Positions 4,806-22,545 of a stretch of DNA of 64,000 nt are shown here, in pieces. Source of the stretch: an uncultured Dehalococcoidia bacterium (GTDB lineage Bacteria > Chloroflexota > Dehalococcoidia > DSTF01 > JACRBR01); contig CAYJMJ010000004.1 in assembly GCA_964371095.1 (NCBI GenBank), forward strand, positions 17,651 through 81,650, in the 5' to 3' direction. Both the position numbers and the translations under genes were made by a program. Numbering within the stretch: the first letter of the stretch is position 1; each line of letters opens with the position of its first letter. Under the pieces are notes generated by a model, which made no database searches, was not told where the DNA came from, and worked only from the letters and a program-made list of their open reading frames with translations.

Positions 4806-5783
4806 GTGATGCTCGCGGCCCTCTACGTCGCGTTGGCCGTCGGCACGACGGTGCAGCCGCTGCCGATACCGTTCACGTCGGTCCACGCCTCGGTGCCGTT
4901 CCCGGGCGGCGCACCGGTGTTGTTCGGACTGCCGGACCGCCCGTTCACGGTGCTCGTCATCGGCCTGGACCGCCGCCCGTCCGAAAAGGGAGCGAGCCGT
5001 ACGGACACCGTGCTGCTCGTGCGCATCGACCCGGGCGCGCACAAGGCTGCGTTCCTCAGCATCCCGCGTGACTCGCTCATGGAGGTCCCGCAGGCCGGCG
5101 GCACCTACACGCAGGACCGCATCAACACCGCCTATGTCTACAACTGGTCATCGAAGGACGGCAGTGCGGCGCCGAAGGCCGTGGCGGCCACGATCGAGCA
5201 CAACCTGGGCATCAAGGTCGACCATTACATCACGTTCGATCAGCGCAGCGCCGAGGACTTGATCCAGGCCATGGGCGGCGTCACGATCGACAACCCGCGC
5301 GAATTCGGCCAGGAGGACTACTCCGACGACGACGTCCACGTCGTGCCGCAGCACTTCGCGAAGGGCAAGATCTCACTCGACGGCTACCAGGCCGTCGCCT
5401 ACGGCCGCATACGCGAAGGCTCCACCGATTTCGATCGCATCCAGCGGCAGCAGCGAGTCGGTTCGGCGCTCATTCATCAGGCATCGTCGCCGATGTCCGT
5501 CGTTCACCTGCCTGCGGCGTTCAACGCGTACCGGAAGACCATCAAGACCGACATGAGCCTGCGCCAGTCGGCGGGCGTGCTGTCGCTGCTCAAGGGCGTC
5601 GACGACGGCGACCTCAAGACGAAGTCGCTCGGCGACGCGGCGGTGTCGTGCAACTCCTGCACGGCGTCGATCCAGCTCCTCGACCCGGCCAGGGTGCAGG
5701 CGATCATCGCCGAAGCATTCGGCGACCCGGAGGCCGGCGCCCGCGCCGCGCAGCTTCTCGCCGCCGCGGGCGTCACGCCGTAA
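4806..5783 (+). CDS. LytR-CpsA-Psr (LCP) family cell-envelope phosphotransferase; N-terminus probably encoded from 4621 in another frame
   Basis: Transmembrane helix MLAALYVALAVG followed by an LCP domain (TVLVIGLDRRPSEKGASRTDTVLLVRIDP...FLSIPRDS...DRINTAY). The frame is open back to 4602 with no ATG. The 4621 ATG frame (MILAVMEDFEAYGQLRDRPRD...PPPP) would join it after a -1/+2 shift inside the poly-C tract. Confidence 0.8.
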   Translation: MMLAALYVALAVGTTVQPLPIPFTSVHASVPFPGGAPVLFGLPDRPFTVLVIGLDRRPSEKGASRTDTVLLVRIDPGAHKAAFLSIPRDSLMEVPQAGGTYTQDRINTAYVYNWSSKDGSAAPKAVAATIEHNLGIKVDHYITFDQRSAEDLIQAMGGVTIDNPREFGQEDYSDDDVHVVPQHFAKGKISLDGYQAVAYGRIREGSTDFDRIQRQQRVGSALIHQASSPMSVVHLPAAFNAYRKTIKTDMSLRQSAGVLSLLKGVDDGDLKTKSLGDAAVSCNSCTASIQLLDPARVQAIIAEAFGDPEAGARAAQLLAAAGVTP

Positions 5784-5793
5784 GGAGGACGAA

Positions 5794-6210
5794 TTGACCG
5801 AAGAAATCACCGCCGACTTCCTGATCCTCGCCGATGCGGCGCAGGTCCAGGGCGAGAAGCTCTATTTGCTGGGCGGCGGATGGTCGCTCATCTGGGCCAA
5901 GGAGTTTCCCGCGCAGCACCAGATGGCCGTCGCCGCCGGCATCCTCATCCCGTGGATGGAGACGAATGCCCGCCACCAGTTCCGCATCCACGTCCACTCC
6001 GAGGACGGCGCGACGTTCGGCGACGTCAGCGGCGAGTTCGAGCAGGGCCGCGCGCCCGGCCTCCCGCCGGGAACCACGCAGCGCGTCATGCTCACCGTCA
6101 ACATGGGTATCCGCATCGAGCGGCCAACAGAAGCCGCCGCCGAACTGTGGCTCGACGGCGTGCTCGCGCGCTCCGTGCCCTTCCGGATCGCCGCGACGCC
6201 TCCGCGCTAA
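5794..6210 (+). CDS. conserved hypothetical protein (138 aa), co-oriented 10 nt downstream of the LCP gene
   Basis: Clean ORF with non-biased composition (MTEEITADFLILADAAQVQGEKLYLLGGGWSLIW...). No family recognised. Confidence 0.55.
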   Translation: MTEEITADFLILADAAQVQGEKLYLLGGGWSLIWAKEFPAQHQMAVAAGILIPWMETNARHQFRIHVHSEDGATFGDVSGEFEQGRAPGLPPGTTQRVMLTVNMGIRIERPTEAAAELWLDGVLARSVPFRIAATPPR

Positions 6211-6935
6211 CCGCGCGCCTTTCGTGACTGCCCGATGAATGCGTCGAACAGCCGCCGCATGAGCGGCGCGAACTCCGGTTTGTGCCCTTCGGGCCGCTCG
6301 GGGTGCCACTGGACGCTCACCACCCAGCGATGCTGCTCGCTCTCGGCGCCTTCGACCAGGTCGGACCCGTGATCGTCGGCGAACGCGATCGGCCGCAACC
6401 CGGCGGCCAACTCCGACGCCCCGACGGCCTGGTGGTGGCGCGAATTGACCTCGAATGCGGTCTCGCTGAACGCCGCCGCCAGCCGCGTGTCGCCGATGAG
6501 CCGCACGCGGTGCCACCGCGATGGGTACCCCGGCGTGCCGAAGTCAGCGCGATGCTCTCCGCTGTCGATGTGCTGGAGGAGTCCGCCACCGAATCCGACG
6601 TTCATGAGCTGGTGACCCCGGCAGATCGCCAGCACCGGGATATCGAGCCGCAGCGCTTGCTCCAGGTACGCAAGCTCCATCGCATCGCGCTCGGGCGACG
6701 TCTCCTTGACCTTCGGGTGGCGCTCGGCGGCGTAGCTCGACGGGTCGACGTCGATGCCGCCGGTCAGCATCAGCGCGTCGAGCGATGGCGCCAGGTCGGC
6801 GGCCCGGCCCACGGCCGCCTCGTTGAGGTCGATGACCTCGCCCCCGGCCTCCCGCACGCGCGACCAGTACCGGTCGAGCGCCTCGGCCGCCACGTCCTCC
6901 CAGCGCGTTACGCCGATGCGCGGCGCATCACTCAT
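6207..6935 (-). CDS. class I glutamine amidotransferase, gamma-glutamyl-GABA hydrolase-like (peptidase C26)
   Basis: Catalytic Cys in LAICRGHQLMNV and a His/Glu region (WHPE). 242 aa. Confidence 0.8.
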   Translation of the reverse strand: MSDAPRIGVTRWEDVAAEALDRYWSRVREAGGEVIDLNEAAVGRAADLAPSLDALMLTGGIDVDPSSYAAERHPKVKETSPERDAMELAYLEQALRLDIPVLAICRGHQLMNVGFGGGLLQHIDSGEHRADFGTPGYPSRWHRVRLIGDTRLAAAFSETAFEVNSRHHQAVGASELAAGLRPIAFADDHGSDLVEGAESEQHRWVVSVQWHPERPEGHKPEFAPLMRRLFDAFIGQSRKARG

Positions 6936-7088
6936 CGCGGTTCACCCCACTTGCCCCGTACCTGCGGCACCGCGGCATACGCCGGCATGCCTCACTCCGA
7001 GGTTACACGGTGCGCCCCGTGTCCGCACCGGGCGAACAAGAAGGGCAGCCTCGTGGCTGCCCGTTCGAGCTGCGGCTCGGCGAAGCGG

Positions 7089-7922
7089 TTACTCCTCGAA
7101 CTCCGGGTCGTCGGCGTCTTCGTCGCGCGCGACGTCGAACAGCGTGACCTCTCGAGGTTCGGCTTCGTGCTCGGCCTCGTGTTCCGTTTCCTCCCACTCC
7201 TCGTTCTCTTCGGCGAACTCGTCTTCCTCGTCGAGGTCGGCCCGCACGAGGCTCTCCTTGGTGTACGGCCGCACCACCTCGCCAGCCTTGCCCGCCGGGA
7301 ACGACAGCCGGCCCACCTGGCCCGGGTGCTGGAACGTCTCCTTGATGATCACCCGCACGCTGTCGCCGCTCAGGCCGGCGACCGCCGCGGCGTACTTATT
7401 GCCGCCGGCGATCAGCCTCGTCAGCCGCAGCGCCAGCTTCGGCTCGATGTCGCTGATGTAGTCGCCCGCCATCGTCTCGACCGTCAGGCGCGAGCCGATG
7501 GTCTTCAGCGCCACCTCGTCGCCGGCCGACAGCGTCGCGAGCATCTTGATGTTCGCGGGCTTGAGCACGGTCACGCCCGTCTTGCCCATCTCCTCGATGA
7601 ACAGGCTGGTGTCCACCTGCTGCGCCCTGTCCGGCTCCGCCTTGGCGCGCGCCGTCGCGAGCCGCTCGAGGTTCTTGCGGGCAATCGAATTGGTCGGCTC
7701 GAGTTCCAGCGCCTGGTGGTACGCCTCTCGAGCTTCCTTGATCTTGCCCGTCTCGCTCAACGCCTTGCCGAGCCGGTTGTAGGCCTCGGGCTCCGTGGGA
7801 AACACGGCGATGATCGCGCGGTTGGCCGTGATCGCGTCGTCCCAGCGGCTCTGCATCGCGAACTGGATCGCCTGCTCGGTCCGAACGCGCTTGATGCGCG
7901 CTTTGTCTTCGGTCTGGTTCAT
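7089..7922 (-). CDS. TPR-repeat protein with acidic C-terminal tail
   Basis: TPR-like helices (AYNRLGKALSETGKIKEAREAYHQALELEP) and a C-terminal Glu/Asp-rich tail. Start chosen at MNQTEDK (7920-7922), preceded by AGAGGA; the ORF is open up to 8006. Confidence 0.7.
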   Translation of the reverse strand: MNQTEDKARIKRVRTEQAIQFAMQSRWDDAITANRAIIAVFPTEPEAYNRLGKALSETGKIKEAREAYHQALELEPTNSIARKNLERLATARAKAEPDRAQQVDTSLFIEEMGKTGVTVLKPANIKMLATLSAGDEVALKTIGSRLTVETMAGDYISDIEPKLALRLTRLIAGGNKYAAAVAGLSGDSVRVIIKETFQHPGQVGRLSFPAGKAGEVVRPYTKESLVRADLDEEDEFAEENEEWEETEHEAEHEAEPREVTLFDVARDEDADDPEFEE

Positions 7923-8117
7923 ACGTCCTCTTGAATGCGTTCGGGGGCTCGAATGTCGGGAGATTGTAGGCTGTTGCCCGAAGCAACACAAGTCAGTTTT
8001 TCCCACGGTAGCATCGGCCGAATACCCTCATGTTCGATTGCCACATGCACGTAACATTAGGGCCGGCCCCGTGCGATGGTTCTCGCACCTGGCGCCCGCA
8101 CTCCGTATATTCTCTGC

Positions 8118-8798
8118 ATGAGCGAGACTGCACCCTCCGTCAACGAGGTCATCGTCCACGGCATCATCGTCGGCGCGTTCCAGGAGAACTGTTGGGTGAT
8201 CGGGAACCGCCGCACGGGCGAGGCCGTCTGCGTCGATCCCGGCGACGAGCCCGAGGAGATCCTCGCCATGGCCCGGGAGATGGGCGTCCAGATCAAGTAC
8301 ATCGCCAACAGCCATGCCCACATCGACCACATTCTCGGCGTGGCCGCCGTGCGCGAGGCTACCGGCGCGAAGTTCCTCCTCCATCCCGGCGACCTGGAGA
8401 TCGCCCGTGGCACGGCGAAGTCCGCCCGCGCCTTTATGGGCATCGACATCCCGAACCCGCCGGAACCCGACGCCCTCCTCGCCGACGGCGATGAGATCGA
8501 CGTCGACGGGCTGAAGCTCACGGTCCTGCACACCCCGGGGCACACGCCCGGCAGCGTCTCGTTCTACGCCAACGGCGTGCTGTTCGCCGGCGACACGCTG
8601 TTTCAGGGCTCCATCGGCCGCACGGATCTCCCCGGCGGCGACGAGCGCCAGGAGATGGCGAGCATCGTCGACCGCCTGCTGGCCCTCCCCGACGACACGA
8701 TCGTGCTGCCCGGCCACATGGGCCAGACGACGATCGGCGAGGAGCGGCAGCGCAACCCATTCGTCCGCATGGAACTCGCCCGCCGCGAGGGACGCTAA
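8118..8798 (+). CDS. MBL-fold metallo-hydrolase (glyoxalase II-like)
   Basis: HAHIDH metal-binding motif, TPGHTPGS and DTLF. Start chosen at MSETAPSV. Confidence 0.85.
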   Translation: MSETAPSVNEVIVHGIIVGAFQENCWVIGNRRTGEAVCVDPGDEPEEILAMAREMGVQIKYIANSHAHIDHILGVAAVREATGAKFLLHPGDLEIARGTAKSARAFMGIDIPNPPEPDALLADGDEIDVDGLKLTVLHTPGHTPGSVSFYANGVLFAGDTLFQGSIGRTDLPGGDERQEMASIVDRLLALPDDTIVLPGHMGQTTIGEERQRNPFVRMELARREGR

Positions 8799-8819
8799 CC
8801 GGAGCCGCGGAAGCCGGGC

Positions 8820-9023
8820 CTACTTCGCGATCATGACGTCGGTTGACTTCACGACCACCGTGACGCGGTTGCCCTTCTTCAGGGCCAGCGCGTCGGCCGA
8901 GCCGCGCGTGATCGCGGCGACCATCTCCTGCCCGCCGATGTCAACGACGACCTCGCTCATTACCGTGCCGAGCTTGACGCTCACGACCTCGCCCTTGAGC
9001 TGGTTCCTGGCGCTGAGCGGCAT
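8820..9023 (-). CDS. single-domain molybdopterin/molybdate-binding Mop (TOBE) protein
   Basis: 67 aa, MPLSARNQLKGEVVSVKLGTVMSEVVVDIGGQEMVAAITRGSADALALKKGNRVTVVVKSTDVMIAK: a typical Mop/TOBE fold. The ORF track extends it upstream; I prefer the short form. Confidence 0.7.
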   Translation of the reverse strand: MPLSARNQLKGEVVSVKLGTVMSEVVVDIGGQEMVAAITRGSADALALKKGNRVTVVVKSTDVMIAK

Positions 9024-9133
9024 CTGTTCCACCTCCTGCGTGTCGAGTTGCCGGGGACGATCGTACACCCAACCGGCATGCGCGCACCGGTCCGTCCGCC
9101 CCTCCGCCACGTGCCGTCCGGCCCCTTGCACGG

Positions 9134-9161
9134 CGGACTTCGATATAGGACGATTTGTCCG
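9134..9161. promoter_or_regulatory. candidate operator: nested inverted repeats CGGAC-N18-GTCCG and GGAC-GATTT-GTCC around a CGATATA motif
   Basis: Seen in the sequence 9 to 36 bp upstream of the regulator ATG at 9170, in the divergent region shared with the mop gene. CGATATA resembles the E. coli ModE half-site. Confidence 0.35.
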
Positions 9162-9169
9162 CAATCCGG

Positions 9170-10306
9170 ATGGAGGTGCCAACCGTGGGACGTCGCACAG
9201 AGGCCGCTGCCCTCCAGAGCAAGGTCCGCGCGGCACGGGTTGCCGGGGGCCTGTCGCAACACCATCTTGCTGAACGGGCCGGCATCACCCGCCAGGCGAT
9301 CGTGGCGATCGAGGCCGGGCATTACACGCCCAACACCGCCGTCGCGCTCCGCCTTGCCCAGGCGCTCGAATGCCGGGTCGAAGACCTGTTCGTCCTGCCG
9401 GAGCCCCGCGTCGAGCGGCCGGCGGCGATCGCAGGCGGACGCGTCGCACCGGGCGCGCGCGTCGTCGTGGCGGCCGTCGGCGACCGGCTCGTCGCGCATC
9501 AGTTGGGCGGCAGCGGCCTGTTCGCCCCGGCCGACGGCGTCGCCGTGAACGCGGCATCGAAGGTCCAGCTCTTCATCGACCCCGAGCAGGCCGAACGCAC
9601 CGCGTTTCTCGTCGGTTGCGACCCGAGTCTCGGCATCCTCGCGTCGTGGGTATCACGGCGTTCCCAGGCGGCGCGGCTCGTCTGGCTGCCTGGATCGAGC
9701 CAGGCCGCCCTCGACGCGTTGAAGCACTCCACGGCCCACGTCGCCGGCATCCATCTCCGCGACGCGAAGACCGGCGAGTTCAACGTCGCCCACGCGCGGC
9801 GCGCGCTCGCCAGCGCCGGTGGCATCGTCGTCAGCTACGCCGGATGGGAGCAGGGATTCATCGTCGCGCACGGCAACCCGAAGAAGCTCGGCTCCATCGC
9901 GGACCTCGCACGGCCAGGCGTGCGTCTCGTCAACCGCGAGGCCGGCTCGGGGAGCCGCGCTCTCCTCGATCAGTTGCTCGGCGGATCCCGCATCCCGGCC
10001 GAGCGGGTGCTCGGGTACGACGACGTCGTCAGGAGCCACATGGCCGTCGCGCGCGCCGTGGCCAGCGGCGCCGCCGATGTCGGTATCGGGCTTCGCGCAG
10101 TCGCCAGGGCCTCCTGCGGATTCGTGCCGCTGGCCGACGCCCGGTTCGATTTCCTGATCCCGAGCGAGCACCTCAAGCATCCGGCGATCCAGGTATTGCT
10201 CGACGTCATGCAGTCCGCGTCGCTCCGCGCCGACCTGTCCGCCCTGCCGGGATATGACGTGAGCGCCACGGGAACGGAACAGGCGCGATTCGGCGCCGTC
10301 GCCTGA
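9170..10306 (+). CDS. transcriptional regulator, XRE-type HTH fused to a PBP-like (ModA-like) substrate-binding domain; putative molybdate/tungstate-responsive
   Basis: N-terminal HTH (LSQHHLAERAGITRQAIVAIEAGHYTPN) and a C-terminal periplasmic-binding-protein-like 2 fold. Next to mop and modABC. The alternative TTG at 9155 was used by the ORF track. Confidence 0.8.
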   Translation: MEVPTVGRRTEAAALQSKVRAARVAGGLSQHHLAERAGITRQAIVAIEAGHYTPNTAVALRLAQALECRVEDLFVLPEPRVERPAAIAGGRVAPGARVVVAAVGDRLVAHQLGGSGLFAPADGVAVNAASKVQLFIDPEQAERTAFLVGCDPSLGILASWVSRRSQAARLVWLPGSSQAALDALKHSTAHVAGIHLRDAKTGEFNVAHARRALASAGGIVVSYAGWEQGFIVAHGNPKKLGSIADLARPGVRLVNREAGSGSRALLDQLLGGSRIPAERVLGYDDVVRSHMAVARAVASGAADVGIGLRAVARASCGFVPLADARFDFLIPSEHLKHPAIQVLLDVMQSASLRADLSALPGYDVSATGTEQARFGAVA

Positions 10307-10345
10307 TAGAGTCCGGCGCAAGCCGCACGAGAACGGAGAGAGCCC

Positions 10346-11212
10346 ATGGTTCGTCCACTCCGCCGCCGCGCACGCCGGTGGCTCGTCGTTGCCATCGCCG
10401 TGATCGGCGCGATGGTGGCTGCGTGCGGAAGCGGCTCGAGTTCGGACGAGAAGCGCGGGGCGTCGCCCGCGGCCGGCGCGTCCGAGACCGGCGGGCTGTC
10501 CGGCTCGATCACCGTGTCCGCCGCCTCCTCCCTGACGGACGTGTTCTACCGCGAAGCGGCGGCGTTCCAGAAGGCGCATCCCGATACGCGAGTGAACTTC
10601 AACTTCGGCGGCAGTCCGACGCTCGTGACCCAGCTCGACCAGGGCGCCCCGGCCGACGTGCTCGCCACCGCGGACGAGAAGAACATGAAGTCCGCGTCCG
10701 ACAAGTCGCTCGTGGGCGCCGTCAACGTCTTCGCCAGGAACCGGCTCGTCATCGCCGTCCCGACGTCGAATCCCGGCGGGATCCAGGCGCCGAAGGACCT
10801 CGCCAAGCCCGGTCTCAAGCTCGTGCTCGCGGAGGAAGGCGTGCCCGTCGGCGATTACGCGCGCCAGGCGCTCTCGAAGATGGAGTCCGACGGCTCGTTC
10901 GGGGCCGGGTTCACCGGCGCCGTGCTGAAGAACGTCGTCTCCGAAGAGTCGAACGTCAAGGCGGTCGTCGCCAAAGTGCAGCGCGGCGAGGCCGATGCCG
11001 GCATCGTCTACAAGACCGATATCACGCCCGCCGTCGCGAAGGACGTGACCACAATCGACATTGCCGACGGGTTCAACGTCATCGCCTCCTACCCGATCGC
11101 CATCACGTCGATGGCCGGGTCCCCGGGCGTCGCCGCGGCGTTCATCGAGTTCATCATGTCCGCCGAGGGCCAGAAGATTCTCACCGATAACGGGTTCAGC
11201 GGGGTGAAATGA
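10346..11212 (+). CDS. modA: molybdate ABC transporter substrate-binding lipoprotein
   Basis: Lipobox (VAACGSG) and a ModA-family fold with the SAASSL anion-binding motif. Stop overlaps the next start as ATGA. Confidence 0.9.
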   Translation: MVRPLRRRARRWLVVAIAVIGAMVAACGSGSSSDEKRGASPAAGASETGGLSGSITVSAASSLTDVFYREAAAFQKAHPDTRVNFNFGGSPTLVTQLDQGAPADVLATADEKNMKSASDKSLVGAVNVFARNRLVIAVPTSNPGGIQAPKDLAKPGLKLVLAEEGVPVGDYARQALSKMESDGSFGAGFTGAVLKNVVSEESNVKAVVAKVQRGEADAGIVYKTDITPAVAKDVTTIDIADGFNVIASYPIAITSMAGSPGVAAAFIEFIMSAEGQKILTDNGFSGVK

Positions 11213-12084
11213 GCGGCGCCGTCCACGCATCGCACCGCACCGCCGGCGGCGTCCGGGCGGGCCTCGGTTGGCTCTTCAGCCCGCCGGCATTGCTCTTCGC
11301 GGCGTTTCTCGCGGTGCCCCTCGCGGCGTGCGGCGGCTCGCCCACGCCCGACGCGACCGCGATCCCGGGTCAGCGGCCATCGGGTAACATCACCGTCCTC
11401 GCCGCTGCCGACCTGCGCCTCGCGTTCGACAAGATCGGGGCCGCGTTCGAGAAGACCTGCGACTGCCGCTTGACGGTGACCTACGGCTCGTCCGGGACGT
11501 TCGCGACGCAAATCAAGCAGGGCTCACCTGGCGACGTCTTTGCGTCCGCGGACGTGTCATATGTCGATGGGTTGGAACAGGACGGGCTCATCCTTCCTGA
11601 CACAAAGCGGGACTACGCTATCGGACGCATCGTCCTGGCAGCGAGCGCCGGCTCACGATTGACCATCGACGGGTTGGCTGACCTCGCCGGCCCCCAGTTC
11701 AAGAAAGTCTCCATTGCAAACCCTGATCACGCTCCATACGGCCGTGCGGCGAAGGAAGCCCTGACCGCACTGGGTCTGTGGGACAAGATCGAGCCGAAGC
11801 TCGTGCTCGGCGAGAACGCCGCGCAGGCCACCCAGTACGTCGAGACAGGCGACGCCGACGGTGGCATCATCCCGCTTTCGCTTTCCATTCAGAACAAGGA
11901 CAAGATCCGGTACGTACTGATCGACGACAGACTCCACAGTCCCCTGAGGCAGGCGGCCGCCGTCCTCAAGCAGAGCAAGCACGCCGACGTGGCAAGAGCG
12001 TTCCTTGACTACCTCAACGGGCCGGAGGGGCGGCCCATCATGCGCGAGTACGGGTTCGTTCTTCCCGGGGAACAGGCGCCATGA
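11209..12084 (+). CDS. second ModA-family substrate-binding lipoprotein (divergent paralogue, possibly tungstate/other oxyanion)
   Basis: Lipobox (LAACGGS) and a ModA-like fold, but the anion-binding motif reads LAAADL instead of SAASSL. ATGA overlaps on both sides. Confidence 0.85.
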   Translation: MSGAVHASHRTAGGVRAGLGWLFSPPALLFAAFLAVPLAACGGSPTPDATAIPGQRPSGNITVLAAADLRLAFDKIGAAFEKTCDCRLTVTYGSSGTFATQIKQGSPGDVFASADVSYVDGLEQDGLILPDTKRDYAIGRIVLAASAGSRLTIDGLADLAGPQFKKVSIANPDHAPYGRAAKEALTALGLWDKIEPKLVLGENAAQATQYVETGDADGGIIPLSLSIQNKDKIRYVLIDDRLHSPLRQAAAVLKQSKHADVARAFLDYLNGPEGRPIMREYGFVLPGEQAP

Positions 12085-12755
12085 ATGCCATCGACGCATC
12101 GGACATCATCATCACACTGCAGGTGGCGAGTCTCGCGACGCTCCTTTCGATCCTCGTCGGGATACCGCTCGCGTGGATATTGGCGCGCTACCGGTTCCGC
12201 GGGCGGGCGATCGTCGAAGCGTTGACGATGCTGCCCCTCGTCTTGCCGCCGACCGTCGTCGGGTATTACCTGCTGCGGGCGCTGGGGCGAAGCAGCGCGT
12301 TCGGCCGCTTCCTGGAAGAGGACCTGGGGATACGGCTGGTCTTCACATGGCAGGGCGCCGCCATCGCCGCAGCGATTCTTTCAGCGCCTCTGCTCATCCG
12401 CACGGCGCAGTCCGCCTTCGAGCAAGTTGACCCGGAGTTGGAGCGCGTAGCCGCGACGCTGGGGCGGTCCCGTGTCAGCGTCTTCGTCTCGGTCACGCTG
12501 CCTCTGGCGCTGCGCGGCGTGACCGCCGGCATCGCGCTCGCGTTTGCGAGGGCAGCTGGTGAGTTCGGGGCCACGGTCATGATCGCGGGCAACATTCCCG
12601 GCAAGACACGCACCCTGCCGATCGCGGTCTACGACGCGGTGCAGGCGGGCGACATCGCGCGCGCGAACGCGACGGCGCTCCTGCTCATCGGCATCAGCCT
12701 GTCGTGCCTCCTGTTCTTCAGCTGGACCACGCTGCTATTCAGGCGCTCGCCATGA
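12081..12755 (+). CDS. modB: molybdate ABC transporter permease
   Basis: 224 aa with five transmembrane helices and the ABC permease EAA-like motif. ATGA coupling to modC. Confidence 0.9.
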   Translation: MNAIDASDIIITLQVASLATLLSILVGIPLAWILARYRFRGRAIVEALTMLPLVLPPTVVGYYLLRALGRSSAFGRFLEEDLGIRLVFTWQGAAIAAAILSAPLLIRTAQSAFEQVDPELERVAATLGRSRVSVFVSVTLPLALRGVTAGIALAFARAAGEFGATVMIAGNIPGKTRTLPIAVYDAVQAGDIARANATALLLIGISLSCLLFFSWTTLLFRRSP

Positions 12756-13939
12756 GCGCTTCCGGGCGTGGCAGCGCCATCGACGATGGACGGCCGGCGC
12801 CGGGCCCTCGCGACCTCGATGTGCGCGCGTGCCGGCAGTTTGGAGAGTTTCGCCTGAATGTCGAGTTCTCGGGCGGCGATGAGACGGCTGTGCTCTTCGG
12901 ACCGTCGGGCGGAGGCAAGACGCTGACGATGAAGGCCATCGCCGGCCTTGTGCGGCTCGACGCCGGGCGGATCGCCGTGGGGCCGCGCGTGCTGTACGAC
13001 AGCGAACGCCGCATCAACGTCCCGCTGCGGTCGCGACGCGTGGGCTACGTGCCGCAGGGTTACGCGCTGTTCCCGCATCTGACCGTCGCGGAGAACATCG
13101 CCTTCGGCCTGCATGGCAGCGGGCGCGCGGCGCGCGACGCCACTGTCGCCGACATGCTGCACTTGACGGAGTTGGAGGGGCTGGAGCGACGCCGCCCCGC
13201 TCAGTTGTCCGGCGGGCAGCAGCAGCGCGTGGCTCTCGCGCGAGCGCTCGCCTGCCGCCCGGACATCCTCCTGCTCGACGAGCCGTTCAGCGCGCTCGAT
13301 GCTACGATCCGCGCGGAGTTGCGCGACGCCATCGTCTCGCTGCATGAGTCGCGTGGCATCCCCGTCCTGATCGTCACGCACGACCTGGCGGACGCGTTCA
13401 GCCTCGGCAACCGCATCATCGTGATCGAGGGCGGCCGTGTGTTACAGCAAGGGTCCCGTGAGGACGTATTCTTCCGCCCCGCCACGCGCCGCGTTGGCCA
13501 GCTCGTCGGCACGCGAAACATCCTCCCGATGACCGTGTCCGGGTTCTCCGACGGTGTGGTCAACCTCGACTGGTCCGGCAGACCGATCGTCGCCGCGATC
13601 TATTCGACTCACGCCGTGCCGCCACTCGCGCCTGGCCAGCGGGTCGAAGCATGCATCCGGTCCACGCAGGTCATGATTCGCCGACCGGGCGACACATACG
13701 ACGGGCGTCCTAACGTCTTTCTGGGGCGAATCGCCCACGAGATCATGGGCGCCGAGATCTATCGCCTCTTCGTGAGGCTCGCCGGCTCCGGGGCTCGCCA
13801 CGATCTGGAGATCGAGCTGCCGGCGTACACGTACTTTCGCCTCGGGCTGGACCGGAGCAAGGACATCGAAGTGTCCATCCGGCACGAGGCCGTGCACATC
13901 ATCCACGAGACTCCGGAGAGCACAGCCGCTCCGCGTTGA
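12752..13939 (+). CDS. modC: molybdate ABC transporter ATP-binding protein with C-terminal TOBE domain
   Basis: Walker A (GPSGGGKT), signature motif (LSGGQQQRVALARAL), Walker B (LLLDEP) and a C-terminal TOBE/Mop domain. Start at the ATG overlapping the modB stop. Confidence 0.9.
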   Translation: MSASGRGSAIDDGRPAPGPRDLDVRACRQFGEFRLNVEFSGGDETAVLFGPSGGGKTLTMKAIAGLVRLDAGRIAVGPRVLYDSERRINVPLRSRRVGYVPQGYALFPHLTVAENIAFGLHGSGRAARDATVADMLHLTELEGLERRRPAQLSGGQQQRVALARALACRPDILLLDEPFSALDATIRAELRDAIVSLHESRGIPVLIVTHDLADAFSLGNRIIVIEGGRVLQQGSREDVFFRPATRRVGQLVGTRNILPMTVSGFSDGVVNLDWSGRPIVAAIYSTHAVPPLAPGQRVEACIRSTQVMIRRPGDTYDGRPNVFLGRIAHEIMGAEIYRLFVRLAGSGARHDLEIELPAYTYFRLGLDRSKDIEVSIRHEAVHIIHETPESTAAPR

Positions 13940-13998
13940 GGCGAACGGCGACATGCCCGCCCACCCGTACGACGTGCTCGGCATCGGATCGAAGCACG

Positions 13999-14052
13999 AT
14001 TGGCATATCGCGCGCACTGCCGAGCATCTGTCCTTCGTTCCGAGCGAGTGAC
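13999..14052 (-). repeat. diverged copy of the dispersed intergenic repeat family (see 31066, 32705, 46283)
   Basis: The reverse complement, GTCACTCGCTCGGAACGAAGGACAGATGCTCGGCAG, aligns with GTCATCCTGAGCGAAGCGAAGGATCT...CGGGCAG at 31066. Confidence 0.4.
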
Positions 14053-14054
14053 CG

Positions 14055-15434
14055 TCAGCGGCCGTGGATCTCCCGCAGGAACCGCGCGTAGCTCTCCAGC
14101 GCGGCCATCGCTCGCAGGGCGCGCTCCGGATACGCGTACACCGGCACGCGCGCCGCGTCGAGCATCATGCGGCCGCGGCTCACCGCCTCGCCACCCATGT
14201 ACACGCCGGCGACGGGCTTGTCGCTCGTCCGCGCCAGGTGCGTGATGACCCGCGCCGTGCGCTCCGGCTCGGTCGGCGCCTGCGGCGTCAGCAGCACGAC
14301 GACGCCGTCGACGTTCGGATCGGCGAGCGCGATCTCCGTCGCGAGCTGGTACCGGTCCGCTGCCGCGTCGCCGAGCACGTCGATCGGGTTCGCCGATGAC
14401 GCCGCGGCCGGCAATCCCTCCGCGAGCCGATCGCGCGATACCGGCGACAACCGCGCCAGCTGCAGCCCGTACCGCTCGATGGCGTCGGTCGCCATCACGC
14501 CCGGCCCGCCCGCGTTCGTCACGACGGCGATCCGGCGGCCACGCGGCAGCGGCAGGTACGAGAACGCCAGCGTGTAGTCGAACAGCTCCTCCATCGAGTA
14601 TGCGCGCACGATGCCCGCCTGTCGAAACGCCGCATCGACCACCGCATCCGACGACGCGAGCGCCCCGGTGTGCGACGACGCGGCGCGCGCCCCCGCCGCG
14701 CTGCGGCCGACTTTCATGATCACGAGCGGCTTGCGCGCCGTCACGCGCTTCGCGGCCTCCAGGAACCGCCGCCCATCGGTGAACCCTTCCAGGTAGCTGA
14801 CGATCACCTTCGTCTCGTCGTCGTCGCACAGGTAATCGAGCACGTCGATCTCGTGCACGTCGGCCATGTTGCCGAGCGACACGAACTTCGAGAACCCGAC
14901 GTCGATCGCGCGCGCCCAGTCGAGGATCGCCGCCGCCATCGCGCCCGACTGGCTGACGACGGCGATCTCGTAACGGTACGGCGCCGACTCCGCGAACGTC
15001 GCGTTCAGGTTCGCGAACGTGTTGATGATGCCGAGCGAGTTCGGCCCGATGAGCCGCACGCCTCCGGCGGCCGCGCGCGCCCGCAGCTCGCGCTCCCGCG
15101 CCGCACCCTCGGCGCCGATCTCGCGAAAGCCCGCCGTGATCACGACGGCCGCCTTCACGCCCTTGCGGCCGCACTCGTCGATTACCTCAGCGGCGGCGGC
15201 GGCCGGCACCGTCAGCACCGCCAGGTCCACCGGCCCGGGGATCTCGTCGAAATGGGCGTACGCGCGAAGGCCGAGCACCGACTCCGCGTTCGGGTTCACC
15301 GGGTACAGCGGGCCGGGGAAGCGCGCCCGCATCAGGTTGTCGAGCATCACGTAGCCGAGCTTCTGCGGGTTCCGCGATGCGCCCGCGACGGCGATGCTGC
15401 GCGGCACGAAGAAGGCGTCGAGATCGGTGTTCAT
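14055..15434 (-). CDS. CoA-binding acyl-CoA synthetase (NDP-forming) alpha-like subunit
   Basis: CoA-binding Rossmann fold (SIAVAGASRNPQKLGYVMLDNL) plus a succinyl-CoA-synthetase-like ligase domain. Start at MNTDLD. Confidence 0.85.
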   Translation of the reverse strand: MNTDLDAFFVPRSIAVAGASRNPQKLGYVMLDNLMRARFPGPLYPVNPNAESVLGLRAYAHFDEIPGPVDLAVLTVPAAAAAEVIDECGRKGVKAAVVITAGFREIGAEGAARERELRARAAAGGVRLIGPNSLGIINTFANLNATFAESAPYRYEIAVVSQSGAMAAAILDWARAIDVGFSKFVSLGNMADVHEIDVLDYLCDDDETKVIVSYLEGFTDGRRFLEAAKRVTARKPLVIMKVGRSAAGARAASSHTGALASSDAVVDAAFRQAGIVRAYSMEELFDYTLAFSYLPLPRGRRIAVVTNAGGPGVMATDAIERYGLQLARLSPVSRDRLAEGLPAAASSANPIDVLGDAAADRYQLATEIALADPNVDGVVVLLTPQAPTEPERTARVITHLARTSDKPVAGVYMGGEAVSRGRMMLDAARVPVYAYPERALRAMAALESYARFLREIHGR

Positions 15435-15483
15435 GGCGTGCATTCTATGCGCTGCGAACGCCCGACCTCACTCGGCGCTGTCC

Positions 15484-15870
15484 CTATGTATCGTCCTCGG
15501 CCTCCAGAGCCTCTTTGAGGTTCGCGAGGCCCTGCACGAGCGCCAGCGCGAACCCCTGGTCGCGCAGCCCGAGCGTGATGGTGCGAAATAGCAGATACCG
15601 CAGCCCAAACGGCGTGAGCCGGCCCGACACCTCGGTGTATCCGTCTTTCGCCGCGATCTGGTACGTGAGCCAGCACGGCACGTCGCCGATTGTCACCCGC
15701 AGCTCGAGCGAGCGGCCGGGCTCCCGGCGGAGCACCTCGAACGCTCCGTCCGCCTCGGTCGACGCCTCGGCAAGCTCCCGTTCGAGCGCCGCGTAGATGC
15801 GCTCGGGAGTCGCGTTGATCGCGAACGCTTTCTCGATCGCCAGGGCTGCCTCCGTTTGCGCGCCGTTGGC
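15484..15870 (-). CDS. SRPBCC-family (polyketide cyclase/Aha1-like) protein; start uncertain
   Basis: ...LAIEKAFAINATPERIYAALE... is a typical first strand of the fold. The ORF is open to 15942 but overlaps the divergent neighbour, and no canonical start is visible. Confidence 0.5.
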   Translation of the reverse strand, partial: ANGAQTEAALAIEKAFAINATPERIYAALERELAEASTEADGAFEVLRREPGRSLELRVTIGDVPCWLTYQIAAKDGYTEVSGRLTPFGLRYLLFRTITLGLRDQGFALALVQGLANLKEALEAEDDT

Positions 15871-15940
15871 GGCCGGGCGCGTCTGCCGACATAATACGCG
15901 CGGCGCCCGCCGGCCGTGCGGTCCGCGCCGATGAGGGTTC

Positions 15941-17146
15941 ATGACCAGGACATGCGCGCGGCTCGCCGCCCTCTGCTGCGGCGCGCTGCTCTTCGCCTGC
16001 GGCGGCTCGACCGCCCGCCAGCCGACGCCATCCGCCGTGGCTACGCAGCCCCCGGCGGCGATGACCGTCGGGGCGGGTCAGCCGATCATCATCGGCATCT
16101 CGGCGGCGCTCAGCGGAGACCAGGCAAGCCTCGGCAACGATCTCGCCGACGCCGCCGACCTCGCCATCAGCGACCACGGCGGCTCCGTCAAGGGCCACTC
16201 GCTCAGGGTCGAGCGCGTCGACGACCGCTGCACCGACGCCGAGAAAGCCACGCAGGTCGCCCGCACGTTGCTCTCCGAGGCGGCGCTCGCGGGCGTGGTC
16301 GGGCCGATGTGTACGACGGGCGCGCAGGCCGCCAACAAGATCTACGAGGCCGCCGGCGTCGTGCACATCTCGCCGTCCGTCACGCGTTCGGACCTCTCGA
16401 ACCAGGGCGAGCGGTACTTCTTCCGCGTCGCCTGGCGTGACGATGTCGAGGCCGCCGTTCAGTCCGGCTACGCCTTCGGCACGCTCAACGTGAAATCGAT
16501 CACGCTCGTCGACGACGGCGAGCCGTACGGAAAGGCGCTCGCCGATGCCTTTGCGGCCGCATTCCAGCAGGCCGGCGGAACCGTCCTGTCACGCGAGCGC
16601 ATCGACCCGAACGCCGCCGACTTCTCGTCGCTCGCGCAGCAGGTGAAGAGCGCAAATCCCGATGCCGTCGTGTTCGAGGGCCTCAACCCGGGCGGCGTGC
16701 TGATCGCCAGGGCGCTGCACGACGCGGCCTACTCCGGCGCGTTCATCGCCCCGGACGGCGTGCTCAGCACGCGCGATTTCATCACGCAAGGTGGCCCCGC
16801 CGTCGAAGGCGCGATCGTCACCGGCGGCCCGATGCCCGACGACACGTTCGCCCGGCACTTCCAGGACCGCTTTCAGCGCGCGCCCGGCACGCCGTTCGTG
16901 CTCCAAACGCACGACGCGGTCACCATCCTCCTCAACGCGATCGAAACGAGCGCCGCCGAGGGTGACGGCGGCACGCTGGTCATCGACCGGGTGCGGTTGG
17001 CCGACACGCTGCGGGCGCAGAAGTCCACGGGGCTGACGGGATCGATCGAGTTCGACGAGAGCGGCGACCGGCGCGGCGACACGGCACTCGAGGCGGGCCT
17101 CGTGATCTACCGCGTGGTCAACGGCCGCTTTGAGCCCGTCCCGTGA
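15941..17146 (+). CDS. branched-chain amino acid ABC transporter substrate-binding lipoprotein (LivJ family), orphan
   Basis: Lipobox LFACGGS and a type-I periplasmic binding fold. No adjacent permease or ATPase genes. Confidence 0.85.
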   Translation: MTRTCARLAALCCGALLFACGGSTARQPTPSAVATQPPAAMTVGAGQPIIIGISAALSGDQASLGNDLADAADLAISDHGGSVKGHSLRVERVDDRCTDAEKATQVARTLLSEAALAGVVGPMCTTGAQAANKIYEAAGVVHISPSVTRSDLSNQGERYFFRVAWRDDVEAAVQSGYAFGTLNVKSITLVDDGEPYGKALADAFAAAFQQAGGTVLSRERIDPNAADFSSLAQQVKSANPDAVVFEGLNPGGVLIARALHDAAYSGAFIAPDGVLSTRDFITQGGPAVEGAIVTGGPMPDDTFARHFQDRFQRAPGTPFVLQTHDAVTILLNAIETSAAEGDGGTLVIDRVRLADTLRAQKSTGLTGSIEFDESGDRRGDTALEAGLVIYRVVNGRFEPVP

Positions 17147-17346
17147 TCAGGCGGCCTCGTTCAGCAGGTTCAGCTCGTCGAGCGCGTGCGACAGCGCCTC
17201 GTTCAGGAGGCGGATCGTCTTGTCGCGCTCGTCGACCTCGGCTTCGAGCTGGACGATGCGTGGCGACTTCCGGCGGATGGGCTTCGTTTCGGGTGTCACT
17301 GCAGGCTTCATGCGCCGATTCTGCGCCGTTTCCAGCCACACGGCCA
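17147..17346 (-). CDS. small basic coiled-coil protein (66 aa)
   Basis: MAVWLETAQNRRMKPAVTPETKPIRRKSPRIVQLEAEVDERDKTIRLLNEALSHALDELNLLNEAA. Composition is unlike the GC-driven spurious ORFs here. Confidence 0.4.
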
Positions 17347-17811
17347 TACGTGTTCCCCCGACATTCGTGACATATCGATGACAGCCCGCACGATCCTCAC
17401 GATCACCGTGCGCGACGGCGGGCCGGTCGTTACGGCGACGCCGCGGCGGCCGGCGGTCACCGCTCACGTCACGCTGGCCGGCCGGTGGCTGCGCATCGCA
17501 CTCTCCGGCGCCGGCGACGTTGAGCTGCGCATCGCCGGCGCGGACGACGTCGACGTGCGCGGCGGCTACCTCTACGCCGTGCCGGGAGACCCGTACGTAG
17601 TGCGCGCGCACGTCGCGGGGCGCCTCGCGGTCGCGGCGCGCCTGCGCCGCCGCTGACCCCGCCGAAGCTGCGTTACGAAGCGTTTACGGAGAGTTTCCCG
17701 CGCGGCGACGGCGCCATAACAACGCGCACACGGCACGCGGCGATAGTAGCAGCGTAGACGGTATCGCTCGCACCGGTGCGGGCGCCGCAACGCAGAGACA
17801 GAGAGGACGCC

Positions 17812-18303
17812 ATGCTCAAGAGAGCCTTCGTAGCAGCAGCATTCCTGGGAGCCGCGGCCTCGGCGTTCACCGCGTTCGCGCCGGCCGCCTCGGCCGCCAC
17901 GCCGCCGCCGGCCGGCGCCGCGCCGTCGGCCTTCGTCGCCGGGCGCAACGTGCTCACCGCGCACGGCTCGGGCATCGTCGCCGTCAAGGGGGCGATGGAC
18001 CTGAACGCCAGCGCCGCCGAGGGCGTGCTCCTCGTCAAGGATCCCACCGGCGACGCGCGCATCGACGTCGATGGCTATGGCGGCCAGGGCGAGTGGAACG
18101 GGGTCAAGGTGTACTGGGGCTTCCACGGCCACGCACACATCGTGGGCCGTGACGTCGGCGTGATGATCATCGGCCGCGACGTCGACCTCCGGGTCATCGG
18201 CCGGGGCTGGGCCTTCCTGAAGGGACACGGTTCGTACAGCGTCAACGGCGGGCCGCCGCAGCCCTGGACCGAAGAGGGCGCGCGGTTCAACGTCGCGCCG
18301 TAA
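17812..18303 (+). CDS. secreted hypothetical protein with signal peptide
   Basis: MLKRAFVAAAFLGAAASAFTAFAPAASA looks like a signal peptide, followed by a Gly/Asp-rich mature domain with an internal GRDVGVMIIGRDVDLRVIGRG repeat. Confidence 0.55.
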   Translation: MLKRAFVAAAFLGAAASAFTAFAPAASAATPPPAGAAPSAFVAGRNVLTAHGSGIVAVKGAMDLNASAAEGVLLVKDPTGDARIDVDGYGGQGEWNGVKVYWGFHGHAHIVGRDVGVMIIGRDVDLRVIGRGWAFLKGHGSYSVNGGPPQPWTEEGARFNVAP

Positions 18304-22450: not shown

Positions 22451-22545
22451 ACTGAACGCTCGAACCCCGATCGCGCCGCCGCCTGCGGTCCGCATTCTGA
22501 CGCATGCGGACCACCGGCACCACGGCCGGGGCGGAAGGAGATGAC

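Follow-up and report, generated by a model that had tools for sequence, protein, structure and literature searches.

The molybdate cluster in the 64,000-nucleotide stretch of DNA from an uncultured Dehalococcoidia bacterium analyzed here (the window) is headed by a 373-residue regulator that joins an XRE-type helix-turn-helix (HTH) to a periplasmic-binding-protein-like (PBP_like) sensor domain, and the locus is probably a molybdate/tungstate uptake module controlled by a one-component, oxyanion-loaded sensor-repressor that occludes its own promoter. In the proposed mechanism, the oxyanion would be bound in the cleft that separates the two lobes of the cytoplasmic PBP-like domain, and ligand-induced closure would favor a dimer, assumed from the symmetry of the site, on a 27-bp palindrome at positions 9141-9167. 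The loaded regulator would then block transcription of reg-modA1-modA2-modB-modC, because its site overlaps the putative core promoter, and uptake would stop once the metal is abundant, as with ModE in E. coli and TaoR for tupABC.

The regulator gene (9185-10306, plus strand) is the first of the reg-modA1-modA2-modB-modC operon, in which a 39-nt gap separates it from modA1 and the genes that follow overlap by 4 nt. A scan of positions 8700-10500, which take in the regulator gene and the gap to modA1, predicted no terminator or consensus promoter. Profile matches to ModA, ModA, ModB, and ModC directly downstream, all on the plus strand, place the regulator at the head of a mod cluster, as the first-pass annotation of this DNA had it. 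The modA1 gene (10346-11212) encodes a lipoprotein-type molybdate-binding protein (TIGR01256, 135 bits against a cutoff of 62.5; SBP_bac_11, 5e-51) that is 67-73% identical to the copies in L081, L082, and L084 and represents the ModA type kept beside the regulator in close relatives. The second, divergent ModA, encoded by modA2 (11209-12084; TIGR01256, 198 bits against the same 62.5), is 27% identical to ModA1 and has no counterpart in the close relatives compared. The permease gene modB (12081-12755) matches TIGR02141 at 238 bits (cutoff 182.6), and the ATPase gene modC (12752-13939) matches ABC_tran at 1.3e-29 and TIGR02142 at 206 bits, under the cutoff of 285, with a C-terminal TOBE match of 18.5 bits, under the cutoff of 22.3. 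Translation of modC probably begins at ATG 12752 rather than GTG 12704, because this ATG forms an ATGA overlap with the modB stop codon and homologues align from residue ~31.

For the regulator itself, GTG 9185 is a more likely start than ATG 9170, because MGRR is the N-terminus of homologues, P0001 (99% identical) has 373 amino acids, and a Shine-Dalgarno sequence, GGAGG, lies at 9172-9176 on the plus strand, 8 nt before the GTG; relatives carry GGAGG or GGAGGT at the equivalent place. The spacer between the regulator and the divergent mop gene is therefore 161 bp long, with its inverted repeats 24-51 bp upstream of the start, amending the 147 bp and 9-36 bp that had been counted from the ATG.

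The fusion of an XRE-type HTH to a PBP-like domain was borne out by Pfam, which matched all three of the anticipated models: HTH_3 (PF01381; residues 19-73, 1.6e-12, 47.7 bits with the cutoff at 23) and PBP_like (PF12727; residues 161-348, 2.5e-60, 203 bits) in the regulator, and TOBE in the separate Mop protein. A beta-rich linker lies between the two regulator domains, and TOBE gave no Pfam match in the regulator polypeptide. Only XRE-type models match the HTH (HTH_3, HTH_31, HTH_19, HTH_26, and HTH_25), with no HTH_17 match at E<=0.01, and its matches among PDB sequences are the PbsX-family and CylR2 repressors. The PBP_like domain has a two-lobed alpha/beta fold that is superposable on ModA, WtpA, PstS, and Sbp, within the oxyanion-binding cluster of class-II periplasmic-binding-protein folds. 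Its fold matches also include many LysR effector domains, and LysR_substrate (PF03466) scored 19 bits against the regulator, below cutoff. The general layout, in which a two-lobed class-II PBP fold that shuts around its ligand comes after a small HTH, is also that of LysR-type and other HTH-plus-class-II-PBP regulators. The LysR type, however, has a different class of HTH and a linker helix where the window regulator has a beta-rich module, and the sensor domain of the window regulator resembles oxyanion transport proteins more closely than it does LysR_substrate. Recent descent of the sensor domain from the neighboring ModA was considered and rejected, as local similarity extends over 28 residues only.

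Class-II binding proteins typically hold anions at loops just before helices, and the invariant motifs of the regulator family, GCDPS (149-153), S177, and NRExGSGxR (255-263), lie in loops at such places. Together with the gene context, these motifs point to molybdate or tungstate as the likely ligand. That the domain binds another anion (phosphate, sulfate, or vanadate) or a molybdenum cofactor intermediate, with an indirect link to mod, is very unlikely: it is specifically modABC that accompanies the regulator, in two gene arrangements and in several phyla, and neither pst nor cys genes border the locus in the window. In its favor, a cofactor-pathway ligand is conceivable from the fusions of PF12727 to MoeA in archaea and Desulfovibrio that PMC10102598 describes, and mod genes are missing from the flank in 23 of the 80 genome loci fetched, several of them on short contigs.

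The MoeA-PBP_like fusions (PRK14498, "molybdopterin biosynthesis protein") have the C-terminal PBP_like domain in common with the window regulator, which lacks the MoeA domains; NF011068 scored 181.9 bits, below its cutoff of 534, with regulator residues 122-369 aligned to model positions 397-642. This common domain explains the JGI name of the regulator, "putative molybdopterin biosynthesis protein", a misleading name that the domain analysis corrects. Judged by its domain content, the window regulator is no cofactor-biosynthesis enzyme.

Nested inverted repeats had been reported in the spacer, and both are present at the positions given, an outer one of CGGAC (9134-9138) and GTCCG (9157-9161) with 18 nt between them, and an inner one of GGAC (9148-9151)-GATTT-GTCC (9157-9160). 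Neither goes beyond chance by itself, as the fractions of dinucleotide shuffles of the 161-bp spacer that reached the observed count of inverted repeats were 0.66, 0.14, and 0.30 for arms of 4, 5, and 6 nt. The repeats alone were thus discarded as evidence of an operator, and their significance comes from conservation only. By this measure the outer repeat falls away as a functional element: its left arm, GCGGAC (9133-9138, no strand assigned), is not kept in four close relatives (L001, L081, L082, and L084), which have CTTTGC, CAGCGC, CCGGGC, and TCATGC in its place, and it lies outside the functional element. The inner repeat stands, being conserved in relatives together with its GATA and (T/A)ATC flanks, and the whole site is kept across five close orthologous spacers.

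Conservation and a position weight matrix (PWM) define the operator as an imperfect 27-bp palindrome (9141-9167, no strand assigned), C-GATATAGGAC-GATTT-GTCCGCAATC-C, with seven of ten arm positions complementary. The family consensus is (G)GAT(A/T)nnnGAC-N5-GTCnnn(T/A)ATCC, with the inner GGAC-N5-GTCC as its core; each half-site covers 11 bp (GATA plus GAC), and Desulfobacterota show a spacing of N10 in place of N5. When the window site was scored leave-one-out over a scan of 127,940 window positions, it reached 29.0 bits at 9139-9169; the runner-up, at 10.3 bits, lies inside an MFS open reading frame (42957-44219), and no further operator copies were found in the window, nor do the open reading frames annotated between 94 and 53347 include molybdenum cofactor biosynthesis or molybdoenzyme genes. 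In 25 Chloroflexota loci of ~13 kb each, no other position outscores the operator, which is found 26-67 nt ahead of the regulator start; 10 of the 25 had contributed nothing to the matrix. The site in L028 is a perfect palindrome, GATAGCGGAC-AATAC-GTCCGCTATC, and that in L018 reads GGATATCAGAC-CGCAC-GTCTGATATCC. When metagenomes were scanned with GGATWNNNGACNNNNNGTCNNNWATCC, a regulator homologue was present in only two of the 80 matched loci listed (L096 and L110), where it lies immediately downstream of the site; the other listed matches look like chance, and no additional regulon members were taken from them. The recognition-helix residues R41, Q42, I47, and E48, invariant across the regulator family, appear in line with the conserved GAC/GTC core of the operator. 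With a palindromic operator directly upstream of the regulator's own start, autoregulation, as suggested in the first-pass annotation, is a reasonable reading.

The block GTGCCGTCCGGCCCCTTGCACG (9111-9132, plus strand) hardly varies among five orthologous intergenic regions. It contains a -35-like TTGCAC at 9126-9131, and a weak -10 candidate, GACGAT, follows 17 nt later at 9149-9154. This block is the candidate promoter of the regulator-mod operon, an assignment drawn from conservation and spacing because the consensus scan gave none there. In Thermomicrobia-type loci, the left half-site forms the -35 element of a canonical TTGAC(G)-17-TACACT promoter. As the window promoter is weak, the idea of occlusion thus rests on the conserved TTGCAC block and on these clearer promoters in relatives. 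The possibility that the spacer encodes a molybdenum cofactor riboswitch or another known RNA was rejected, since Rfam at E<=1 gave only a sub-threshold Guanidine-III match inside the regulator open reading frame.

We argue for control by a holo-repressor by analogy with ModE and TaoR. The same protein and site could in principle work with the opposite logic, the apo-form binding DNA and the oxyanion releasing it, or the regulator activating mod transcription. Ligand-released repressors exist among XRE-family proteins, and the weak consensus of the window promoter could fit activation. The abstract of the TaoR paper (Rajeev et al. 2019) is said to describe TaoR as an activator and a repressor. 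PMC11980592 likewise has TaoR both activating and repressing, and according to PMC12327845 its DNA binding in vitro is unaffected by tungstate. We nevertheless consider this opposite logic unlikely, as substrate-induced high-affinity uptake would be physiologically unusual and the Thermomicrobia-type site covers the -35 element and spacer of a strong consensus promoter, which is the geometry of a repressor.

The description of this system as a "split ModE" had to be given up, as the regulator shares neither the DNA-binding domain nor the Mop sensor of ModE. Whereas ModE consists of a winged-helix N-domain and tandem Mop domains, the window regulator combines an XRE HTH with a PBP-like sensor and has no homology to it; the ModE model NF007957 gives no match in the regulator, and its only match, to the separate Mop, scores 29.6 bits where the cutoff is 369. 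The operators also differ, ATCGnTATATA-N6-TATATAnCGAT for ModE and GATAnnnGAC-N5-GTCnnnTATC in the window. A CGATATA motif in the spacer had been likened to a ModE half-site, a resemblance that proved superficial: its GATA belongs to the half-site of the regulator family itself, as the outer part, and a TATATAnCG partner at N6 is missing. A ModE-type site in the spacer was accordingly rejected, with TCGATATA alone resembling one half-site and lacking a symmetric partner. By analogy, the physiological role is probably common to both, namely oxyanion-dependent repression of modABC through a palindromic operator over the promoter. Another alternative Mo/W regulator that stands in ModE's place beside mod/tup genes is found in the Desulfovibrio chimeras reportedly named TunR by Kazakov et al. 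2013, which join a phage-integrase-type domain to Mop domains; the window regulator has neither.

The nearest characterized relative of the window regulator is TaoR (DVU3193/"TupR"), reportedly presented by Rajeev et al. 2019 (Environ Microbiol 21:784) as a tungstate/molybdate-responsive regulator family. Both are cytoplasmic one-component proteins with an N-terminal HTH, a C-terminal PBP-like domain (IPR024370/PF12727), and Mo/W transporter genes nearby. They differ in the DNA-binding domain, which in TaoR is an excisionase/MerR-like HTH_17 (IPR041657), according to PMC11980592, and in the window regulator is of the Cro/C1 XRE type (HTH_3). TaoR also has a different operator and the TupABC transporter, as opposed to ModABC beside the window regulator. 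PMC11980592, PMC10102598, and PMC12327845 assign TaoR the regulation of tungstate transport (tupABC) and of a tungsten-containing aldehyde oxidoreductase.

Among 50%-identity representatives, the regulator family comprises 684 clusters at E<=1e-30, and relatives occur in 506 GTDB species genomes, Chloroflexota, Desulfobacterota, and Acidobacteriota among them. Within the fetched flank, modA or modB was present in 57 of the 80 genome loci, co-directional just downstream of the regulator in 26 and divergent in 23. L009 and L013 are Sphaerobacter and Nitrolancea loci. A literature search found no experimental work on any XRE-PBP_like family member and no publications on XRE-type Mo regulators, so that the family is apparently widespread, already named in databases, and experimentally uncharacterized in the literature found. 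In the textbook account, molybdate/tungstate homeostasis belongs to ModE. For molybdate, a 2024 metal-sensing review still names no regulator but ModE. Regulators other than ModE appear to be in use in many phyla, and this common family, with its modABC neighbors and a defined candidate operator, thus offers a candidate, ready for testing, for the Mo/W regulator that is missing in the groups that carry it. The XRE-PBP_like regulator is also a compact predicted oxyanion-responsive switch with a transporter-type sensor fold, which could serve as a biosensor part.

Divergent from the regulator lies mop (8820-9023, minus strand; ATG 9021-9023, stop 8820-8822), and the separate 67-aa single Mop/TOBE protein that the first-pass annotation had recognized there was confirmed by TOBE (PF03459, 2e-18, residues 4-65 of 67) and TIGR00638 (69.7 bits; cutoff 55). 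Its top PDB matches are 1gug, 1fr3, and 9beb, the best being C. pasteurianum MopII (1gug, 6.9e-14), and the SARNQLKG and VVKSTDVMI motifs are kept. Copies 88-93% identical occupy the same divergent position in L001, L081, L082, L084, and L096.

Mop had been put forward as a possible trans-acting sensor, and the strongest form of this reading is a two-protein sensor in which an oxyanion-loaded Mop hexamer would make contact with the XRE-PBP regulator, setting its response or making it sharper, as an unfused equivalent of TOBE-HTH-PBP fusions. Such fusions exist in gut genomes, with 3,818 TOBE-HTH_17-PBP proteins (IPR005116, IPR041657, IPR024370; "TaoR-like") counted in PMC11980592 and its supplement, and every one of the six close-clade loci retains mop beside the regulator in divergent orientation, even as mop's other neighbor varies. 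However, the described fusions carry another DNA-binding domain, no TOBE was found in the seven unusually long or split-matching XRE-PBP homologues examined, and the mop start lies ~130 nt from the operator center, which leaves even co-regulation unproven. In addition, small Mop proteins are established storage proteins, and a stand-alone TOBE gene sits beside the regulator in one of the 80 genome loci fetched (L001, a close-clade member) and is missing from the remaining 79. A two-protein sensor is therefore distinctly improbable, and Mop does not hold up as a general partner: confined to the window's own clade, the divergent mop is an accessory rather than a half that a "split ModE" would require. 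Sensing by a trans-acting Mop is possible only as a clade-specific add-on. It is similarly doubtful that Mop acting in trans would integrate the Mo/W reserve (Mop occupancy) with free oxyanion (PBP domain) at one operator, as a counterpart of the gut Firmicutes fusions.

Most simply, Mop would be a co-located oxyanion storage or buffer protein specific to this clade and outside the sensor. Like the molbindins and Tub (C. pasteurianum MopII, S. ovata Mop, and E. limosum Tub), it is a full-length single TOBE domain with a SARN-type motif, and it is unusual compared with these only in its clade-specific position divergent from an XRE-PBP regulator gene.

Domain searches of the window locus place an HTH_3 domain (residues 19-73, 1.6e-12) and a PBP_like domain (PF12727; residues 161-348, 2.5e-60; ATG-9170 numbering) in the regulator (9185-10306, + strand), with no HTH_17 or TOBE match in Pfam. 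The divergent 67-aa mop gene (8820-9023, - strand) encodes one TOBE/Mop domain and nothing more, matching PF03459 at 2e-18 and TIGR00638 at 69.7 bits (cutoff 55), so the division of domains between two proteins described by the first-pass annotation was recovered. The open reading frames it outlined are real, with a corrected start for the regulator: homologues begin MGRR... in a 40-sequence consensus, a metagenomic protein 99% identical to the regulator (P0001) is 373 aa long, the window GTG at 9185 aligns with an ATG in the closest genome locus, and GGAGG lies ahead of it at 9172-9176. GTG 9185 is therefore the most likely start, which would make the spacer to mop 161 bp. The mod genes follow on the same strand after a 39-nt gap and then with 4-nt overlaps: modA1 (10346-11212; TIGR01256, 135 bits), modA2 (11209-12084; TIGR01256, 198 bits), modB (12081-12755; TIGR02141, 238 bits) and, downstream of modB, the ABC ATPase gene modC, for which ATG 12752, in an ATGA overlap with the modB stop, seems a more likely start than GTG 12704. 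No terminator-like sites were predicted in 8700-10500, covering the regulator gene and the regulator-modA1 gap, and we take the operon to begin with the regulator.

Both nested inverted repeats reported for the spacer, CGGAC-N18-GTCCG and GGAC-GATTT-GTCC, are present where they had been placed. Dinucleotide shuffles of the spacer reach the observed inverted-repeat count in 66%, 14% and 30% of cases (arms of 4, 5 and 6 nt), so the sequence by itself proves nothing about their significance. Alignment of five orthologous spacers (window, L001, L081, L082 and L084; regulators 76-80% identical) revealed two conserved islands, GTGCC(G/A)TCCGGCC(C/T)CTTGCACG at 9111-9132 and GATA(T/C)AGGAC(T/G)ATnTGTCnG(C/T)(A/T)ATCC. 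The inner repeat is thus conserved, whereas the outer repeat was rejected as an operator component and attributed to chance because none of the four relatives keeps its left arm, GCGGAC, and all have unrelated bases there instead.

Further relatives were gathered by a genome scan with the 40-sequence alignment (506 species genomes; 80 loci fetched). GAC-N5-GTC occurs in 16 of 81 regions of 200 nt upstream of the regulator, compared to 0.044 expected per region; all 16 have a copy at -31 to -49 (one has a second at -153), with (G)GAT(A/T) and (T/A)AT(T)CC as flanks in every case. One relative, L028, carries the perfect palindrome GATAGCGGAC-AATAC-GTCCGCTATC, and another, L018, carries GGATATCAGAC-CGCAC-GTCTGATATCC. 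When the window site was left out of a 31-nt matrix, the matrix gave 9139-9169 a score of 29.0 bits, and the runner-up among 127,940 window positions, within an MFS-transporter ORF, scores 10.3. With leave-one-out matrices, 25 Chloroflexota loci have the top match of the entire ~13-kb locus 26-67 nt 5' of the start of the regulator; 10 of these loci contributed nothing to the matrix. The predicted operator in the window, C-GATATAGGAC-GATTT-GTCCGCAATC-C, spans 9141-9167, with 7 of 10 arm positions complementary. This conserved candidate operator is the main new result. The earlier suggestion holds in that a PBP-like-domain regulator probably autoregulates the mod operon through the palindrome. 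The CGATATA motif, previously likened to a ModE half-site, is the outer portion of the left half-site, mirrored on the right by AATC(C), and not a ModE half-site; the ModE consensus ATCGnTATATA-N6-TATATAnCGAT finds no second half in the spacer.

Desulfobacterota and related loci carry TGAC-N10-GTCA in place of the Chloroflexota GAC-N5-GTC, in one or more copies and often as TGACGTnTnnAAnnGTCA. It was found in 16 loci, in the spacers of divergent Desulfobacterota-type loci (among them L032, L036, L039-L043, L045, L048, L054, L056, L058, L066 and L075); in most of these the regulator and modABC are transcribed in opposite directions, and a few have no adjacent mod gene. The two sites have the GAC/GTC triplets in common, with spacing that differs by half a helical turn, and this common core fits the recognition helix, whose residues R41, Q42, I47 and E48 are invariant in the 40-sequence consensus. 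Separately, three of the contigs listed by a pattern scan, at least one of them labelled human-gut, contain a near-identical perfect palindrome, GGATACCGGACA-nnn-TGTCCGGTATCC (L086 2316-2342, L128 1472-1498, L134 2731-2757), with no regulator homologue found near it; in L128 it lies 11 nt past the end of a 481-aa ORF.

Promoter geometry is clearest in the Thermomicrobia-type loci, such as L025 (TTGACG-17 nt-TACACT), where the core of the left half-site doubles as the -35 hexamer and the spacer is taken up by the right half-site, a layout that, on sequence grounds, is repressor geometry. In seven such loci (L015, L017, L019, L021, L025, L026 and L031) the operator and a canonical TTGAC(G)-17-TACACT promoter overlap, in the region from roughly -70 to -20 relative to the start of the regulator. 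These loci also have the right half-site, TGTCnnnnAT(T)C, directly repeated 21 bp upstream, suggesting that more than one dimer may bind. The window clade has a conserved TTGCAC/TTGACC 17 nt ahead of GAC(T/G)AT at the operator centre, which itself lies ~130 nt from the mop start. This pair is a weak promoter by consensus and was not called by a consensus promoter scan, and its assignment as the window promoter is therefore one that we infer. We propose that the oxyanion-loaded regulator would bind the palindrome at 9141-9167, overlapping the putative promoter core, and so block transcription of its own operon; that it acts as such a holo-repressor seems to us a good deal more probable than otherwise. 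The ligand (molybdate, tungstate or both) and the sign of regulation are likewise inferred.

An AlphaFold2 model of the regulator on the 40-sequence alignment (mean pLDDT 91.2, pTM 0.81) was compared with the PDB using Foldseek, which placed ModA-like Lmo1041 (7tav, "PBP2_YvgL_like"; 18.3) first, with generic class-II binding proteins and LysR effector domains next in the ranking. Matches included the sulfate-binding SubI (16.9) and Sbp (16.0), M. jannaschii ModA/WtpA with tungstate (15.9), and ModA 6nio (15.7) and 7t4z (15.2). On this ranking, the PBP-like/ModA-fold domain proposed in the first-pass annotation is borne out at the level of the oxyanion-binding cluster, a fold that cannot name the anion. 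The family-invariant sensor residues (G149-C150-D151-P152, S177, N255-R256, G259, G261, R263 and H290 in the 40-sequence consensus) sit in loops just ahead of model helices 154-164, 177-185 and 261-272; anion sites in class-II binding proteins are typically at helix N-termini. Origin of the sensor as a recent copy of the neighbouring ModA was rejected, with only a 28-residue local match to ModA1 and none to ModA2. Between the HTH and PBP-like domains, a beta-strand-rich module of ~60 residues (9401-9580; residues 78-137, ATG-9170 numbering), confident in the model and with near-invariant R97, R106, F118 and D122, matches nothing in Pfam up to E<=5; it may serve in dimerisation or signal transmission.

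The best solved relatives of the window Mop are MopII of C. pasteurianum (1gug, 6.9e-14), S. ovata Mop (1fr3) and E. limosum Tub (9beb), and the SARNQLKG and VVKSTDVMI motifs are kept in comparison with molbindins. Small Mop/Tub proteins are established storage hexamers, and a co-located store is our default reading of Mop. A stand-alone TOBE ORF was found beside the regulator only in the close clade (L001, L081, L082, L084, L085 and L096, the last a match listed by a metagenome scan), as a divergent 67-aa gene whose product is 88-93% identical to the window Mop (L085 was not compared separately). There, the gene on the far side of mop varies (VTT-domain protein, beta-CASP nuclease or metallo-beta-lactamase), so the mop-regulator pairing itself is being kept, which favors a Mop acting in trans as a speciality of this clade. 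Consistent with this, TOBE-HTH_17-PBP fusions are abundant in gut genomes according to a published survey ("TaoR-like", 3,818 proteins; PMC11980592 and its supplement), which hints, in Rosetta-stone fashion, that TOBE can cooperate with an HTH-PBP module. However, the stand-alone arrangement was found only in the close clade, TOBE elsewhere occurring only as the ModC C-terminal domain, and TOBE is absent from all seven of the unusually long or split-matching XRE-PBP homologues examined, leaving a trans-acting Mop as a low-probability alternative to storage.

There is no structural sense in which the regulator is a ModE, and with Mop limited to one clade, it is wrong to frame the locus as a "split ModE" whose second half is Mop. 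TunR, an integrase-like domain fused to Mop domains, was rejected as a like system since its architecture differs. The nearest characterised system is the tungstate/molybdate regulator TaoR (DVU3193), reportedly characterised by Rajeev et al. in 2019, which has the sensor family and genomic theme in common with the window regulator but not the DNA-binding domain. By this analogy, the regulator would work in a TaoR-like manner, though its DNA-binding head has been exchanged and its operator is its own, and we do not file it in the TaoR family. Two papers report that DVU3193 regulates tungstate uptake (PMC10102598) and that TaoR regulation is tungstate-dependent in vivo with tungstate-independent DNA binding in vitro (PMC12327845). 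Literature searches on the XRE and PBP_like architecture (PF12727, COG1910, XRE family with modABC) found no study, and the molybdate entry in a 2024 review of bacterial metal sensing is only ModE.

An HMMER search, exhaustive over 1.84 billion cluster representatives, returned 684, 2,618 and 6,572 proteins at E<=1e-30, E<=1e-10 and E<=1e-3, respectively; most of the top 150 are ~360-400 aa and match most of the query from about residue 10. JGI already names members of the family [quoted passage not shown] or "putative molybdopterin biosynthesis protein", the latter because the PBP_like domain is shared with MoeA fusions; the MoeA fusion model NF011068 gives 182 bits against a cutoff of 534. 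This large, database-named family, a variation on the TaoR-type design, is apparently uncharacterised, and now has a candidate conserved operator. modA/modB lie within the flank in 57 of the 80 fetched loci: directly downstream on the same strand in 26 (Chloroflexota), divergent in 23 (Desulfobacterota and others) and otherwise arranged in 8; the 23 loci without mod genes include several short contigs.

The mod operon itself looks mosaic. Close relatives have a single modA followed by a modB of 278-282 aa (L081 6026-6865, L084 6023-6859), and in the window (11209-12755) there is an additional modA, modA2 (27% identical to modA1), and modB is 224 aa long. Window ModB is 43-45% identical to that of close relatives versus 56% to that of L004 and L012, more distant operons of ModA2 type, and the first ~40 residues of ModA2 match the N-terminal extension of the relatives' ModB at 64-70%, which suggests that the 5' end of the ancestral modB received a modA2-modB cassette by recombination. 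The regulator and ModA1 are 62-80% identical across L001, L081, L082 and L084; ModC is 69-77% identical in L001 and L082 and only 42% in L084. The C-terminal ~130 aa of window ModC (13541-13936) match TOBE below threshold (18.5 bits versus a cutoff of 22.3) and ModC of close relatives is without TOBE on record, so in this clade a stand-alone Mop is predicted to accompany a ModC whose regulatory domain is degenerate.

Window 4806-15443 and L084 (GCA_040960765.1, JBFOMR010000162.1) have the same gene order: LytR_cpsA_psr, DUF6941, peptidase C26, TPR protein, metallo-beta-lactamase, mop, regulator, mod genes and a CoA-ligase-like gene. The best genome match, L001, is an uncultured Chloroflexia MAG, which places the window in a Chloroflexia-type genome of ~69% GC. 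Four ORFs without a Pfam match at E<=1e-6 have coding-like GC3 of 0.81-0.90 (20726-22585 and 15484-15942, - strand; 17186-17656 and 17776-18303, + strand); one of them encodes a 619-aa protein and adjoins a LonC-like protease gene (22504-25032).
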